Positions 11,272 through 17,097 of a DNA stretch of 64,000 bases are shown here, in pieces. The stretch is taken from the sequence record OR352955.1; one strand, 5' to 3'. The notes under the pieces were generated by a model. That model searched no databases. It worked only from the letters and a program-made list of their open reading frames with translations, and was not told the DNA's origin. Positions within the stretch are counted from its first letter, which is position 1, and every line of letters starts with the position of its first letter. The stretch comes from Escherichia phage AV125. A program made the position numbers and the translations under genes.

Positions 11272-11522
11272 TGTTAAGTATCAAACCTAAAATGATTACT
11301 GAAGATCAAAAAGATTACATTTATAAATGTGGTCGGGTGTGGAAAGAATACACTAAAGGTAATGAAGTTATTGTAGTTACGGAACATGCTATTTCTTTAT
11401 CAGATCTTTTTGGTGATTATTTGCAAGTCATTAAAATTGGTATTGACAGAGGTTTGGTGCAGGTGTTAACATTATCCCAAGTTGAAGCAGAACACTTAGA
11501 CAAAATCATTGTCGAGTTCTAA
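11271..11522 (+). CDS. hypothetical protein (83 aa)
   Basis: TAATG overlap with upstream gene. Confidence 0.5.
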   Translation: MLSIKPKMITEDQKDYIYKCGRVWKEYTKGNEVIVVTEHAISLSDLFGDYLQVIKIGIDRGLVQVLTLSQVEAEHLDKIIVEF

Positions 11523-11710
11523 GAGGAGAAAGAATATGATCTCTTTAGAATCAATAGCTTTTAAGAAGGGGGTATACCGCAGGGTTCAAGTTTGGTATGT
11601 TTAATAAAGTAAATCCATATTGTCCAATGACACACAAAAAGGAATTCGAAGAATGGGAAGATGGATTTTCTAAAGGCTATCAGGCAAAAGGTTGGTTGTA
11701 AGGAGAGAAT

Positions 11711-11875
11711 ATGATTTTAAACTTCATCATCAACTTGTGTTTGACATTGGGGTTACTCTGTGCAATAGTATCCCCTTTGGTTGGTGAATATTGTTCTGAA
11801 CTGGCGATGTTTATAGTTCTTGGTGCGGCTATTGCTAATATGTTTGTCGCTGCGATTTGTATGTTGTGGGAATAG
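11711..11875 (+). CDS. small hydrophobic membrane peptide (54 aa)
   Basis: Own translation MILNFIINLCLTLGLLCAIVSPLVGEYCSELAMFIVLGAAIANMFVAAICMLWE after AGGAGAGA. Confidence 0.35.
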   Translation: MILNFIINLCLTLGLLCAIVSPLVGEYCSELAMFIVLGAAIANMFVAAICMLWE

Positions 11876-11886
11876 GAGGGAAGTTT

Positions 11887-12243
11887 ATGAAAAAACTAAT
11901 CTTAGCCACATTGCTGGCTACCGTAAGCTTCACCACTTACGCTCAAAAATTTGTAGCAGTTAAAACAGATATTGGTAAAGATGTTGTGATCACAGGCAAC
12001 AAGTTTTACTATACACCTGGGAATGGTGTTCTAGAAGAGTGTAAAGATGTTGAGGCATATACGGGAAAAGAAGATAACACGGAACGTCCTTTTTATTCGA
12101 TTATAGCTACTTGCAAAAATGAAATAGTAGCTATTAAACAATACAAAGATGCCCCTGGAGGAGAATACTTATTAGTCAAGAATATTAAGAGTGAAAAAAC
12201 TGCAAAGTTTACAGTAATTATTTTAAAAGGAGAAACGTTCTGA
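11887..12243 (+). CDS. predicted secreted protein (118 aa)
   Basis: Start ATG 11887 gives signal-peptide-like MKKLILATLLATVSFTTYAQ. Confidence 0.5.
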   Translation: MKKLILATLLATVSFTTYAQKFVAVKTDIGKDVVITGNKFYYTPGNGVLEECKDVEAYTGKEDNTERPFYSIIATCKNEIVAIKQYKDAPGGEYLLVKNIKSEKTAKFTVIILKGETF

Positions 12244-13382
12244 TGAAATACACTATTTTTGGAGATGTAGCTGTTGTAAATAAGGAATATGGCGTTGAAG
12301 CTAATAAACTTCCTGCTGGAGTTTGGGTTGTCAACTGCGATCCGCACGGTAACTACTCTTTAGTGCGTGGTGAAAGTTTCTCTCTTCCGAACACTCTTTA
12401 TGGGGAAACTAAAGATCGCGCCGCACATGTTATTAAAACATTTGCTCGTCGTAGTAAAGAAGGTAAAAATACTGGGGTGTTACTGACAGGGACAAAAGGC
12501 AGTGGTAAGACGATGTTAGCTAAACTAATTAGCATGTCTCTAATGTCCACAGAAGGTTTAGGTATTCCAACCATTTTGGTTACACAGCCTTACACAGATG
12601 CTGGCTTCTTAGAATTTATGAGTAAAATTACAGATCGTGCTGTTGTTTTATTTGACGAATTTGATAAAGTGTACGCTAAGAAAGAAGATCAGGAAGCACT
12701 GTTGACCTTGTTGGATGGAACAGGAAGTGGGAATAAACTTTACATCCTCACTAAAAATAGTGGTTATATCTCGGAATATTTTGTAAACCGTCCTAGTCGT
12801 ATCTACTACAGTTTCAATTACGATAAACTGTCTAGTGAAACTATGTTAGATTACTTGGATAAGAACTTGGTAAATAAAAAGCACGTAGATAACTTCCAAC
12901 GTTTATGGGATGTTAGCACAGAGTTGTCTTTCGATGTTATTCAAGGCATTGTAGAAGAATTGAATTTCTATCCAAAAATGACTTTTAAAGAATGTCTTGA
13001 AATGATGGGTATTTCTTTAGGGAACGATGCTAAATGGAATGTGGCTTCTATCGTAGCTAATGGCAAAACCTTGAAGGTGAATTGGATCAATAACTGGCAC
13101 GACTTCACCCCTACTAAGTTTTTGTCGGGTGCTTGTTCCCTGAACATCTATCTACAAAGTTTGAAAGATGATGAAGTGGAAGCAATGGAAACCAACAGTT
13201 ATGTTATCCTGGATGAAGATGGTGATCCACATATTGATCTATGTGCAACGGCTGATGGTCTAACTTGTGATCTGATTGAAGGTGGTAAGATTCTGGTTAT
13301 GAGCACTACACCAGGAAACACTTTGCGAGTGGTGCTGGAGCCTGTAACACAACGTTCCACTACACTTGGTAGCGTGTTCTAA
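12243..13382 (+). CDS. AAA-family ATPase
   Basis: 379 aa; Walker A GTKGSGKT, Walker B VVLFDEFD. Confidence 0.7.
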   Translation: MKYTIFGDVAVVNKEYGVEANKLPAGVWVVNCDPHGNYSLVRGESFSLPNTLYGETKDRAAHVIKTFARRSKEGKNTGVLLTGTKGSGKTMLAKLISMSLMSTEGLGIPTILVTQPYTDAGFLEFMSKITDRAVVLFDEFDKVYAKKEDQEALLTLLDGTGSGNKLYILTKNSGYISEYFVNRPSRIYYSFNYDKLSSETMLDYLDKNLVNKKHVDNFQRLWDVSTELSFDVIQGIVEELNFYPKMTFKECLEMMGISLGNDAKWNVASIVANGKTLKVNWINNWHDFTPTKFLSGACSLNIYLQSLKDDEVEAMETNSYVILDEDGDPHIDLCATADGLTCDLIEGGKILVMSTTPGNTLRVVLEPVTQRSTTLGSVF

Positions 13383-13387
13383 TAAAG

Positions 13388-13412
13388 ATGCCCCGCAAGG
13401 GGCATTTGTTAT
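13388..13412 (+). terminator. intrinsic terminator
   Basis: ATGCCCC-gcaa-GGGGCAT hairpin then TTGTT. Confidence 0.55.
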
Positions 13413-13470
13413 GGAGGGATTTTAGTTATTCTTTTGTTGTAGGCTCGCACTAATAGCTAAAGGGGGAGGT

Positions 13471-14931
13471 GTGCCAAAAATAGTCACTTGGGAACAATAT
13501 AAAACAGATATAAAACAAGCTTATCAAGGTAAGTCTTGGACTGTTGTAGATTATATTGAGCCGTGGAACGGCAATAAAACTAAACTTAGATGCATCTGTG
13601 CTCTGCATGGAGAATGGAAAACAACAAGCATAAATACCGCTAAACTAGGGAGGGGTTGTCCAGAATGCGGTAGGGAGATTATAAGTAAAGCAGTATCTAT
13701 AAACAAATCAAAAACCTGGGAGCAATATAAAGAAGAAGTGCAAACCACTTACAATCAGGCAGGTAAGTTTTGGACTGTTACAGGATGGCACGGAGAATGG
13801 AAAGGATGGAATACTAAACTGGTTTGTTGTTGTGCTTTACATGGGGAGTGGAGGTCTACTTCTATATCTTCTGCGAAAAACGGGAGTGGATGCAGGAAGT
13901 GTATGGGAGAAGCAAACAGAGAAAGAACATCGATTGCATGGGAGAAACATAAAGAAGAAGTAGAAGAAGCTTATAAAGAAAAACCCTGGATTGTTAGAGG
14001 CTATGTGGAACCGTGGAACGGTTCCCGCACTAAGTTGATTTGTGAGTGTAAGGTTCATGGTCAATGGTGCACTACCACTGTAAACAGTGCTAAACAAGGG
14101 ACTGGATGCTACAGTTGTCAAAGAGAAATGACGAAACAAAGGAATACAATGGAGGATAAACAACATGTTGAAGATTTTATAAAAGCTTGTCCTGATAATG
14201 TAGAGCGTAAATATTATCGTAGCGATAGAGTAGATAGATTAGGTCGTCAGGTTTACTGGATTGTAGAATGTCCTATATGTGCAGAGGATGATTATTGTAA
14301 AGAAGGCTTATGCGATAATAAATTTGAGATGAAGATGAGTCATTTGAAAAGGGGTGGCCTTCCTTGCCGTTGTTCTAAATATTATCATTACACTCCTGAA
14401 CAATGGGCCTACCGTATGACCAAAGCTTGCCAGGAACGAGGGGATCAATTTATAGGATTCATTGATAAGGTAAGCAATAACAGCAAGTTTAAATATCTAT
14501 GTAGGGAGCATGGAGAGCAAACGATCACACCTACCGATTATCTCAATGGGAAAGGTTGTCCAGGCTGTAAGAACAGAAATATGCAAGAATTTTACATCAA
14601 TATTATTCTTGATGAGTACGGAGAAGACACGGGAGCTTACAAGTTGGGGATTGCAAAGGACAGTGATATCAGGATCAAAGGGCAGAATGCAAACAACAAT
14701 TACTCTATGCGCCGTATAGCATTGTTCGATCTGCCGTCCTACCAAGCTTGCAGGGCGTTAGAGAGTAAGCTAAAGTCTAAGACTGATCAGATTCTACCGT
14801 CTATTGGCTGTGTAGAACGCTTGCACATGAAAGATGGTCATAGTGAAACCTTCCTGCGCGAGGATTTGGCTATCGTCTTAAGTGCTATCAACCAAGCAGG
14901 TGGAATAATGAGAGAGGAGGAAACATGTTAG
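13471..14931 (+). CDS. zinc-ribbon tandem-repeat protein
   Basis: 486 aa; four N-terminal repeats of ~75 aa each with EPWNG..TKL..C.LHGEW..TS....AK.G.GC..C; cysteine-rich C-terminal half. Confidence 0.6.
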   Translation: MPKIVTWEQYKTDIKQAYQGKSWTVVDYIEPWNGNKTKLRCICALHGEWKTTSINTAKLGRGCPECGREIISKAVSINKSKTWEQYKEEVQTTYNQAGKFWTVTGWHGEWKGWNTKLVCCCALHGEWRSTSISSAKNGSGCRKCMGEANRERTSIAWEKHKEEVEEAYKEKPWIVRGYVEPWNGSRTKLICECKVHGQWCTTTVNSAKQGTGCYSCQREMTKQRNTMEDKQHVEDFIKACPDNVERKYYRSDRVDRLGRQVYWIVECPICAEDDYCKEGLCDNKFEMKMSHLKRGGLPCRCSKYYHYTPEQWAYRMTKACQERGDQFIGFIDKVSNNSKFKYLCREHGEQTITPTDYLNGKGCPGCKNRNMQEFYINIILDEYGEDTGAYKLGIAKDSDIRIKGQNANNNYSMRRIALFDLPSYQACRALESKLKSKTDQILPSIGCVERLHMKDGHSETFLREDLAIVLSAINQAGGIMREEETC

Positions 14932-15290
14932 TTGACGTTCAAATTATGCGCAACGAAAGAATGGACTTCTTTGAAGCAGTAGAGAAACATCTGATCAGAT
15001 GGGACTATGAATTTGTTCCTGCTGGATGTGGACCAGTAGAGCATTTAGCGGAAGACGACGATGTATACATGATCATTCGTCAAGTGTACCAGACAGACCA
15101 GTGTGAAGAAACTCCCGAACTGATTTTGTTTGAGTGTAAAGATCTTGCAAAATATTTTGACTATGGCGGAAAAGAGGGTCATAATCTCTCCAGATACAAT
15201 AAACGTCTACTTATCTTAGACTACATGCGGAACAACAAACACAAACTCATCGACGCAGACGCAGTTTATGGCTACTGGTGGATGGACTAA
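14925..15290 (+). CDS. hypothetical protein (121 aa)
   Basis: GGAGGAAAC-ATG; overlaps upstream stop. Confidence 0.55.
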   Translation: MLVDVQIMRNERMDFFEAVEKHLIRWDYEFVPAGCGPVEHLAEDDDVYMIIRQVYQTDQCEETPELILFECKDLAKYFDYGGKEGHNLSRYNKRLLILDYMRNNKHKLIDADAVYGYWWMD

Positions 15291-15303
15291 CAAAGGAGAA
15301 ACT

Positions 15304-15483
15304 ATGGCACGTTTAGCAGATCATGAAATCTTTAAACCTATTCTGAACCACTATGATGAACTTAAAGCAGTGTTGGATTGTTATAGAGAGGATGAAGAAC
15401 GTTTGGAAGTCAATCTTAAGATAGTTCTGATGAAAGCTTTTCAAGACGGGCAAGCTAAAGTTTTAGAAGGCATGAAAAAATGA
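15304..15483 (+). CDS. hypothetical protein (59 aa)
   Basis: Track ORF 15268 shortened to ATG 15304 after AAGGAG. Confidence 0.4.
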   Translation: MARLADHEIFKPILNHYDELKAVLDCYREDEERLEVNLKIVLMKAFQDGQAKVLEGMKK

Positions 15484-16022
15484 GAATAACTGATGAATAT
15501 GTATTCTTCTTTTCACATAAAGATGTGTTTAGTAATTGGTATATTGCACCCTTTACAGAAACTGAACCAGGTTACAATGAGACTTTCTGTTGTGTTGAGC
15601 AATATATGATGTGGCGTAAGGCTTTGCTGTTCAAGGATCATGCGATTGCAGCAGCTATCCTTGATCACTCAACTATACGTGACAACGAGAGGAAACAAGC
15701 ATACTACAAACGTATGGGTCGAGCGGTATCTGGTTTTAATAATGATATGTGGGAAGAGAACCGTGAGCGTATTGTTATGCGAGGCTTATGCTTGAAATAT
15801 GTACAGAATCCAGATTTGTATGCAGACTTACACCTTTACCAATACAAAACGTTTGTTGAAGCAAGTCCTTACGATAAGGTTTACGGTATTGGAATGGGAA
15901 TGTATGAACCAGGGGTGCTAAACCCTGCTACCTGGAAAGGGCAGAATCTTTTAGGCAAATATCATAATAAACTGATCGAAATACTTTTCCCAGACAAAAT
16001 ACCGCAAAGACGATATTTGTGA
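15480..16022 (+). CDS. NADAR-family (YbiA-like) protein, putative ADP-ribose/N-glycoside hydrolase
   Basis: 180 aa; FFFS..SNW...PF...EQYMMWRKALLF.D....VMRGLCLKYVQNP.L...L..T....LVEASPYDKVYGIG pattern matches NADAR/YbiA fold as remembered. Confidence 0.6.
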   Translation: MRITDEYVFFFSHKDVFSNWYIAPFTETEPGYNETFCCVEQYMMWRKALLFKDHAIAAAILDHSTIRDNERKQAYYKRMGRAVSGFNNDMWEENRERIVMRGLCLKYVQNPDLYADLHLYQYKTFVEASPYDKVYGIGMGMYEPGVLNPATWKGQNLLGKYHNKLIEILFPDKIPQRRYL

Positions 16023-16265
16023 TATTTTAACTTTTTTCATTTTTAGAACAAAGGTGTCACTTTGTAGCACAGAAATAAGGCTCCTACAGCACCGTAGAGA
16101 GCCTGTTATTTTGTCCTATACAAACCCTTGTCTTTTTCAGTTTGCATCACTAAGATTCGATCTGAGTGGGTTCCTGAAGGTTTACCAATAAGATTAAAGG
16201 TTATATCAAATTCCCACTATCTTTTATCTCAAAAATCCCTCAAATTATTTAAACTTTTTAAGAAT

Positions 16266-16450
16266 TTACAAAAGTGAAAGTTGAAAACCAAAATTTAAAG
16301 TTTAGGAAAATTATCTTAAAATGTCAGATACAAAACAAAACTCAAAAGTCAAGGAAAATTTTAAAAATTTTGCGCGCCCACAGTATTTAAAGTTTTTTTG
16401 CTTTTACAAAAATGAAAGTACAAAAGCAAAATTTAAAGTTTACAAAAATT
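16266..16450. repeat. AT-rich direct repeats (iteron-like), 2 full copies of ~48 bp plus partial copy
   Basis: TTTACAAAAgTGAAAGT...CAAAATTTAAAGTTTAggAAAATT at 16266-16313 and 16403-16450; partial AAAGTCAAGGAAAATTTT at 16346-16364. Confidence 0.6.
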
Positions 16451-16465
16451 TTTATGCAGGTGAAA

Positions 16466-16580
16466 ATGAGAAGAGTTCTCATATGGAAATGCAAATGATA
16501 ATGATTCGCATTTAAGTTTATAAATGAGATTGATTCTTATTTAATAAGGTAAATGACAATCATTCTCATTTAGAGAATGA
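16466..16580. promoter_or_regulatory. cluster of operator-like inverted repeats built on half-site ATGAGAA/TTCTCAT
   Basis: ATGAGAA-gag-TTCTCAT (16466-16482); 27-bp near-palindrome AAATGCAAATGATAATGATTCGCATTT (16487-16513); CATTCTC-attta-GAGAATG (16561-16579). Confidence 0.5.
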
Positions 16581-16799
16581 CGCGCAGGGGCGGTGTTTGT
16601 CTCGCGCTCCCGTGTCCCCTCGCCATGTAATAAGAATAACAGATCCAGCCAGGAAAGCAAGCGATTATTTTATCTTTACATTTCTTTACAAATATATAGC
16701 ACCCAGCCTACCGGCGATCAACCTTCCAACCAGTGCCCCCTGGTATGTTAGCCCCGCCTTTACGCCGTGGGGTGGCGCTTCCTCTTCTGTATGTAAAAC

Positions 16800-16828
16800 A
16801 GTATAAGCCCGATCCCTGGGCTTGTCAA
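16800..16828 (-). promoter_or_regulatory. sigma70-type promoter on minus strand, no obvious downstream ORF
   Basis: rc reads TTGACA (16828-16823) - 17 nt - TATACT (16805-16800); reads leftward into GC-rich segment. Confidence 0.45.
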
Positions 16829-16830
16829 GA

Positions 16831-17097
16831 TTATTTTTTGTTTTCTTGCCAGGATAGGACACCTAACCAAAAATACATATCGCCCCGCGCCCCTGGTGGT
16901 ATCTTGCTTTCCCCGCCGCCACTGCAAGCCCATAGATAACCATTTGCGAACGTATCAAAATGATCTATCTCTTCCACCTTATGATCGCCCAGGTTGAGAA
17001 CGGTTTCAACCTTTAAGCCCGTTGCGCTTGCTACCTGGTGCACCGTGCCGCCTTGCCAGCCCAATGAGTGCATAAGGTGTAATGTAGTATTTGTCAT
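16831..17097 (-). CDS. small hypothetical protein (88 aa) inside a GC-rich insert, antisense to flanking genes
   Basis: ORF track; GC-rich codons (GGC, GCG, CAG) unlike surrounding AT-rich genes. Confidence 0.4.
   Translation of the reverse strand: MTNTTLHLMHSLGWQGGTVHQVASATGLKVETVLNLGDHKVEEIDHFDTFANGYLWACSGGGESKIPPGARGDMYFWLGVLSWQENKK

Follow-up and report, generated by a model that had tools for sequence, protein, structure and literature searches.

A probable free-standing homing endonuclease gene with five CapR-type modules and a GIY-YIG-superfamily nuclease domain in a phAPEC8-like Escherichia coli phage

What kind of protein is encoded at 13471-14931 in Escherichia phage AV125, and what might its gene do there? 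The sequence studied is a 64,000-nucleotide stretch of this phage (OR352955.1; hereafter the window), a phAPEC8-like E. coli myovirus of the genus Phapecoctavirus. A preliminary description of the window had reported an open reading frame (ORF) at this position, with four zinc-ribbon repeats and no recognised family. We find that the gene is most probably a free-standing homing endonuclease gene (HEG), whose product joins five CapR-type modules to a T5orf172-type nuclease domain of the GIY-YIG superfamily.

Five modules and a C-terminal nuclease domain

The ORF itself was borne out. It lies on the + strand, encodes 486 residues, and opens with a GTG codon read from the sequence, which is preceded at a spacing of 4 nt by a strong ribosome-binding site, AAGGGGGAGG. 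The RefSeq record of phage ESCO13 uses the identical start, marks the ribosome-binding site at the same place, and names the product "endonuclease." ORFs antisense to the gene are short (52 to 109 residues). The family, which had gone unrecognised, is in fact catalogued: the whole protein matches Pfam PF21817 at 99.3 bits (cutoff, 24.2; E 1.4e-28) over five stretches, and its residues 5 to 483 align with positions 3 to 544 of the 576 in PHROG 681, "endonuclease" (E 8.8e-84). By its own terms, the preliminary reading was to fall if a known enzyme family were confidently matched, and such a match exists, in the GIY-YIG fold of the C-terminal domain and in the homology with the ICP1 protein Gp165, a published homing endonuclease. 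NCBIfam has no family for the whole protein or for the relatives of its nuclease domain. As read from the sequence, the architecture is that of "beads on a string," with modules over residues 1 to 370, a very short linker, and the nuclease domain over residues 371 to 486 (Table 1).

Table 1. Protein domains and cassette edges of the putative endonuclease gene, in window positions
Feature	Residues	Position	Strand	Details
Zinc module R1, CapR homology domain	1-77	13471..13701	+	Candidate ligands C41-x-C43-x2-H46 ... C63-x2-C66; Pfam CapR E 7.2e-6, 26.5 bits
Zinc module R2	78-152	13702..13926	+	Candidate ligands C119-C120-C121-x2-H124 ... C141-x2-C144; Pfam CapR E 1.5e-4, 22.3 bits
Zinc module R3	153-226	13927..14148	+	Candidate ligands C191-x-C193-x2-H196 ... 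C213-x2-C216; Pfam CapR E 1e-4, 22.9 bits
Zinc module R4	227-305	14149..14385	+	Candidate ligands in canonical CapR pattern, C267-x2-C270 ... C299-x-C301; best Pfam CapR stretch, E 1.3e-10, 41.7 bits
Zinc module R5	306-370	14386..14580	+	Candidate ligands C344-x2-H347 ... C363-x2-C366; Pfam CapR E 1.5e-9, 38.3 bits
Nuclease domain, GIY-YIG superfamily, T5orf172-like	371-486	14581..14928	+	Proposed catalytic Y375, K391/G393, R401, Q405, E431; conserved D455-G456..E459-T460
Left cassette edge		13388..13405	+	GC-rich, terminator-like hairpin ATGCCCCGCAAGGGGCAT, directly 3' of the AAA-ATPase stop codon
5' untranslated leader of the endonuclease gene		13408..13470	+	Carries Shine-Dalgarno AAGGGGGAGG; part of the mobile cassette
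Right cassette edge		14916..14931	+	Endonuclease 3' codons GAG GAG GAA ACA TGT TAG, holding GGAGGAAA and the ATG at 14925

The modules R1, R2, and R3 recur with a period of about 75 residues. Their pairwise Smith-Waterman scores (186 to 219) exceed those of shuffled sequences (28 to 31 +/- 6) by z values of 26 to 31 for R1 against R2 and R3 and of 23 to 26 for R2 against R1 and R3, and none of 300 shuffles matched the observed score. R5 is a distant copy of the same type (pairwise z, 4.7 to 10.4; E 1.5e-5 with a hidden Markov model [HMM] of R1 to R3), set apart from the trio by R4 and adjoining the nuclease domain. R4 has no pairwise similarity to the other modules, and its kinship is visible only through the Pfam HMM. 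Scanned singly, all five match PF21817, with R1, R4, and R5 above the gathering cutoff of 24.2 bits and R2 and R3 just below it; the true count is therefore five related zinc modules. Thus, of the four tandem repeats of about 75 residues first reported, three are adjacent and far above chance (z 23 to 31), and the fourth is the distant copy at residues 306 to 370. The consensus quoted for them fits R1, R3, and in part R2, and only those three, so that it covers residues 1 to 226 rather than about 300. What had been called a cysteine-rich C-terminal domain is R4, R5, and a 116-residue nuclease domain with three cysteines, which was overlooked.

Each of the five modules has two pairs of candidate ligand residues some 20 to 30 residues apart, as in CapR. 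The spacing in R4 is exactly that of CapR, CxxC...CxC, while R1 to R3 have CxC-xx-H...CxxC and R5 has C-xx-H...CxxC. These residues are invariant or almost so in 18 relatives; the invariant ones include C193, C213, and C216 of R3, C267, C270, C299, and C301 of R4, and C344, H347, C363, and C366 of R5. R3 is the only member of the close trio found in every family member. In CapR, changing the conserved cysteine pairs to serine abolishes DNA binding (PMC8096241, Netter et al. 2021), and by analogy the modules described here may bind both zinc and DNA. As DNA, the repeats are merely 72 to 75% identical over about 65 to 85 nt, which rules out a recent DNA-level duplication and makes the expansion of modules an old one. 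Beyond these internal repeats, tblastn found no paralog of the endonuclease within the window.

We modelled the full-length protein with AlphaFold2 and an 18-sequence family alignment. The mean predicted local distance difference test score (pLDDT) was 83.8, with 57 to 73 in R1 and mostly 83 to 95 from R2 onward (83 to 89 in R2 and 86 to 93 in R3). R1 to R3 and R5 are predicted to fold into a helix followed by three strands and then a short helix. In R1 to R3, the first ligands fall where strand 2 ends and in the turn leading to strand 3, and the CxxC pair lies at the N terminus of a helix (residues 64 to 80, 142 to 152, and 214 to 225). A zinc ribbon has both ligand pairs on beta-hairpin knuckles; a CxxC at a helix N terminus suggests a treble-clef arrangement, and weak matches among the relatives to DUF4379, described as a "probable treble clef zinc finger," and to DUF723 agree with this. 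"Zinc ribbon" is thus probably the wrong fold label for R1 to R3, and the zinc-free model favors a treble clef. The wider proposal of the preliminary description, that repeated zinc modules serve multivalent nucleic-acid binding, agrees by analogy with the CapR literature (PMC8096241, PMC10448857). Searched against PDB sequences, the family profile hit only ribosomal protein bL31 (E 0.014), and no solved structure was related in sequence to the modules.

The modelled alpha-beta3-alpha repeats might also be read as resembling double-stranded RNA-binding domains (dsRBDs), which raises the question of whether the protein binds double-stranded RNA in a multivalent manner. A Foldseek search with the full model returned the tandem-dsRBD proteins TARBP2, Loqs, R2D2, NF90, and DRB4 at E values of 1e-3 to 0.2, and Pfam DSRM_2 was weakly matched (E 0.068). 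Neither a significant fold match nor a significant profile match places the repeats among dsRBDs, and RNA binding of this kind, already disfavored, is in our judgment hardly credible.

Next, we consider the nuclease domain. A model built on an alignment of 21 relatives gathered by profile search had a pLDDT of 92.9, a predicted template modelling score (pTM) of 0.86, and the topology b-b-a-b-a...a. Its three-stranded antiparallel sheet with flanking helices, in the order b-b-a-b-a, is that of the GIY-YIG fold, and on this modelled fold we assign the domain to the GIY-YIG superfamily as a T5orf172-like nuclease. Its three cysteines form no zinc-binding pattern, and one of them, C427, is invariant in the 18-member alignment. 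The domain does not reach the gathering threshold of either T5orf172 (PF10544) or MUG113 (PF13455). Among its 21 relatives these are the top two Pfam families and by far the most frequent, T5orf172 matching 14 (best E 1.1e-4) and MUG113 matching 10 (best E 3.3e-5), and one relative carries the NCBI name "GIY-YIG nuclease family protein." The nuclease-domain profile found nothing meaningful among PDB sequences. The sequence-profile evidence for the assignment is thus weak but consistent.

The residues proposed as catalytic are strongly conserved. In the 18-member alignment, Y375, K391, G393, R401, Q405, E431, D455, G456, E459, and T460 are invariant; in the 21-sequence alignment, Y375 and Q405 are nearly so and the other eight remain invariant. 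In the model, Y375 lies on strand 1, K391-L-G393 on strand 2, R401 eight positions after the glycine, and E431 on the helix after strand 3. Mapped on I-TevI by spacing and secondary structure, with no significant alignment, Y375 would correspond to Y6, K391-x-G393 to Y17-x-G19, R401 to R27, Q405 to H31, and E431 to E75. The I-TevI query was confirmed to be 100% identical to T4 records. An hhalign comparison of the nuclease-domain profile with I-TevI was not significant (E 0.25); its sole aligned segment, KLGIAKDSDIR/YVGSAKDFEKR, puts R401 on the catalytic R27.

A polymorphic site between conserved genes

A 4.5-kb stretch around the gene is 99.8 to 99.9% identical to more than 12 deposited genomes, including ESCO13, ESCO37, Schickermooser, and nieznany. 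The gene stands free between an AAA-ATPase gene (12243-13382) and an ORF of 121 residues (14925-15290). It is intergenic, has its own ribosome-binding site, and lies in neither an intron nor an intein, and no intron or other Rfam RNA family was found in 11500-17000 at E <= 1. To examine this site, we compared four Phapecoctavirus genomes: the window, ukendt, phiWec181, and phiWec190. The window allele encodes 486 residues with three N-terminal modules, R1 to R3, and is present in about 22 of 70 related records. The ukendt allele encodes 402 residues, with 33% identity to the window protein and two N-terminal modules, and the phiWec181 allele encodes 337 residues, with 68% identity and one N-terminal module. 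In phiWec190 the site is empty: a spacer of 45 nt separates the ATPase gene from the 121-residue ORF, and there is no endonuclease gene. The gene is therefore present in some genomes and absent from another at one fixed position flanked by conserved genes. Such presence or absence, together with the replacement of one allele by another within a single intergenic site, classically marks a free-standing HEG.

At the left edge of the variable segment, the ATPase stop codon and the hairpin ATGCCCCGCAAGGGGCAT are common to all four loci, and similarity between loci is lost a few bases past it. A terminator scan flags this hairpin on the minus strand only. The leader varies from allele to allele and is missing from the empty site, and a promoter scan found no sigma-70-like promoter on the + strand upstream of the endonuclease gene. 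On the right, the four loci share the GGAGGAAA-ATG region, which is found in the phiWec190 empty site and at the 3' ends of the ukendt and phiWec181 alleles. In the window, codons E482 to E484 (GAG GAG GAA) are at the same time the Shine-Dalgarno sequence GGAGGAAA of the downstream ORF, and the endonuclease stop codon overlaps the ATG of that ORF. This double use explains the conserved acidic C-terminal tail of the protein, and because GGAGGAAA and the ATG are common to the empty site and the alleles, the cassette keeps the 121-residue ORF translated.

Conservation is unevenly spread over both the protein and the surrounding DNA. Identity to the phiWec181 allele climbs along the protein, from 45% in R3 to 52% in R4, 71% in R5, and 89% in the nuclease domain. 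By this comparison, the putative DNA-binding end is the variable end of the protein and the nuclease domain is its most conserved part. In the flanks, the left side (12483-13407) is 63 to 86% identical to phiWec190 and phiWec181 and the right side (14925-15800) is 91 to 100% identical; against ukendt, both sides are 95 to 100% identical. These alignments place the endonuclease gene at a boundary of mosaic exchange, and the step in flank identity fits the published siting of nuclease genes at genetic-exchange boundaries.

The same data bear on whether the protein might be a domesticated DNA-binding regulator, whose zinc modules would sit on a promoter to repress or adjust transcription of the phage, with the nuclease inactive or vestigial. 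There are precedents, in that CapR itself is a repressor from the same HEG lineage (PMC8096241) and I-TevI also represses its own gene (PMC10448857), and the tight coupling of the 3' end of the gene to the ribosome-binding site of the next ORF, as well as the subthreshold Pfam T5orf172 score, would suit such a role. However, CapR has no nuclease domain, whereas the one found here is complete and confidently modelled. Its motif residues are invariant across relatives down to about 17 to 35% identity, and it is the best-conserved part of the protein in the phiWec181 comparison (89%, against 45 to 52% for R3 and R4). Presence or absence and allele replacement at the locus are, moreover, typical of a selfish gene. 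We therefore consider a purely regulatory role very unlikely.

If the gene is a HEG, it would spread as follows. In a mixed infection, the zinc modules would act together to recognize a long stretch of DNA in the genome of a related phage that has another allele or no copy of this gene, and this stretch would lie at or near the junction of the ATPase gene and the 121-residue ORF. The tethered nuclease domain would then cut close by. The HEG-bearing genome would serve as the template for recombinational repair, and the cassette of about 1.5 kb (about 13408-14915) would be copied, with adjacent markers, into the cut genome.

Several observations weigh against this reading. The score of the nuclease domain against Pfam T5orf172 is 13.7 to 13.9 bits (E 0.08 to 0.09), under the cutoff of 20, and for this reason the domain is called T5orf172-like here and is not counted in the Pfam-defined family. 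The tyrosine of the YIG motif is replaced by lysine and the histidine equivalent by glutamine, and no clear counterpart of the C-terminal asparagine of I-TevI, N90, was identified in the nuclease domain. The sequence by itself is no guide to activity. R1 was modelled with low confidence, and only one empty site was found, that of phiWec190. Given these caveats, we still regard the HEG as the most probable identity of the gene.

The neighboring genes carry mixed labels in public records. The upstream gene encodes 379 residues with an AAA-type ATPase domain (PF00004; E 8.7e-7), and its product is variously labelled an ATPase, an FtsH-like protease, or a replicative helicase. Farther downstream, at 15480-16022, lies an ORF of 180 residues with a NADAR domain (PF08719; E 3.4e-35), which some records name a YbiA-like N-glycosidase or "GTP cyclohydrolase II." Over the 64-kb window, the GC skew reverses its sign near 10 kb and again near 46 kb and dips near 16 to 18 kb and 26 to 28 kb, a pattern that probably reflects switches in transcription direction between gene blocks.

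A large family of phage nucleases

The protein belongs to a very large family. With tblastn, relatives were found in 419 phage records, chiefly from Vibrio, Escherichia, Klebsiella, and Aeromonas phages. ICP1 Gp165, annotated as a "putative homing endonuclease," matches residues 182 to 479 by BLASTP (E 2e-30, 29% identity), a span that takes in R4, R5, and the nuclease domain. An exhaustive phmmer search of 1.84 billion cluster representatives returned 9,023 proteins at E <= 1e-3, of which 1,858 were at E <= 1e-10. Some of these relatives exceed 1,000 residues and have up to nine matched stretches; in so large a family, this implies that a multimodule architecture is common. One metagenome protein of 669 residues (P0002) holds two complete units of zinc modules and nuclease head to tail in one ORF, which may have arisen by read-through across two tandem HEGs or by genuine fusion. 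The Stephanstirmvirinae records "inny," VivaForever, and PD06 have up to three separate matching places each; several such places in one genome represent several paralogous HEGs, and the 64-kb window has one.

This design has been published for phage nucleases. CapR is a zinc-finger DNA-binding protein that descends from HEGs of ICP1, whose C-terminal domain is T5orf172-like (PMC8096241). Most T5orf172 HEGs carry CapR, DUF723, or DUF4397 zinc fingers, often several, as "beads on a string" (PMC10448857, Barth et al. 2023); DUF4397 is the spelling in most places of that paper and is presumably Pfam DUF4379. The repeated modules have been proposed to cooperate in target recognition, and the intragenic repeats of these genes recombine and their domains are shuffled (PMC10448857). 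Such genes have been reported in related coliphages as well, including the Phapecoctavirus Mt1B1_P17, with Inny and Muut also named (PMC10448857); the supplements of that study do not mention phAPEC8-like phages. The gene described here matches the account of Barth et al. point by point, bar its subthreshold T5orf172 score, and is thus an ordinary gene of an already catalogued kind.

From the same literature comes the possibility of a conflict nuclease like Odn of ICP1, which would help the phage by cutting competing elements, for instance a satellite, a plasmid, or an unrelated coinfecting phage, and would not further its own spread. Odn is a T5orf172 nuclease retargeted against PLE, with nuclease activity that has been shown and depends on a conserved glutamate, and Odn-like proteins have been proposed in the related coliphages Inny, Muut, and Mt1B1_P17 (PMC10448857). 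However, Odn-like proteins bind DNA through RepA_N domains taken over from the elements that they target, whereas the protein described here has CapR modules only, and an allelic series at one site with an empty site is the signature of a HEG. A resemblance to satellite sequences was not noticed either, though no search was aimed at one. We consider such a role unlikely and retain the homing endonuclease as the preferred interpretation.

For annotation, the proper label is CapR-zinc-finger/GIY-YIG (T5orf172-like) homing endonuclease, not "hypothetical protein," and the gene has little significance beyond this. It is one further case of such genes sitting where genome identity between phages changes. 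More tentatively, the alleles at this locus may form a natural series built on a single HEG scaffold, in which one, two, or three N-terminal modules are combined with a constant core of module 4, module 5, and nuclease, alongside one empty site. If added modules lengthen or shift the recognized site, this series would be ready-made for deciphering the structure of CapR-type modules and the code by which they recognize DNA, a prospect that we hold to be possible though doubtful. Alleles that differ in module number and have nearly identical nuclease domains could aid the study of DNA targeting by CapR modules and, if the series is what it seems, could also show HEG alleles displacing each other at a single site. 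As it stands, the series of one, two, or three N-terminal modules and an empty site is only a mildly useful detail.

Comparison with known systems

The closest counterparts are Gp165 and the other CapR/T5orf172 HEGs of ICP1. They share the order of several N-terminal CapR-type modules followed by a C-terminal T5orf172-like nuclease, and Gp165 is itself below the Pfam threshold for T5orf172 (18 bits). Both sets are free-standing genes of lytic myoviruses. They differ in lineage, the present gene belonging to an E. coli Phapecoctavirus and its protein being known from sequence alone, and in its five modules, three of which are a lineage-specific expansion of one module type. CapR of PLE, the repressor of a Vibrio cholerae phage satellite, has the same PF21817 domain, and R4 repeats its CxxC...CxC pattern; it is, however, a single-domain repressor with no nuclease, whereas five modules and a nuclease are found here. 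Odn, the origin-directed nuclease of ICP1, similarly fuses a T5orf172-type nuclease to a sequence-specific DNA-binding domain, but Odn relies on a RepA_N domain, is directed at the origin of a satellite, and is no homing element.

The remaining GIY-YIG enzymes are more distant. In I-TevI and the Seg proteins of T4 the domain order is reversed, the nuclease being C-terminal in the protein described here, and they bind DNA through a zinc-finger linker and a helix-turn-helix rather than a row of zinc modules. For I-TevI in particular, the similarity falls short of significance, and the tyrosine of the second motif and His31 are represented here by lysine and glutamine. Slx1 and HIGLE, eukaryotic structure-specific repair enzymes with RING/PHD partners, show only 13% sequence identity and are related at the level of the fold alone.

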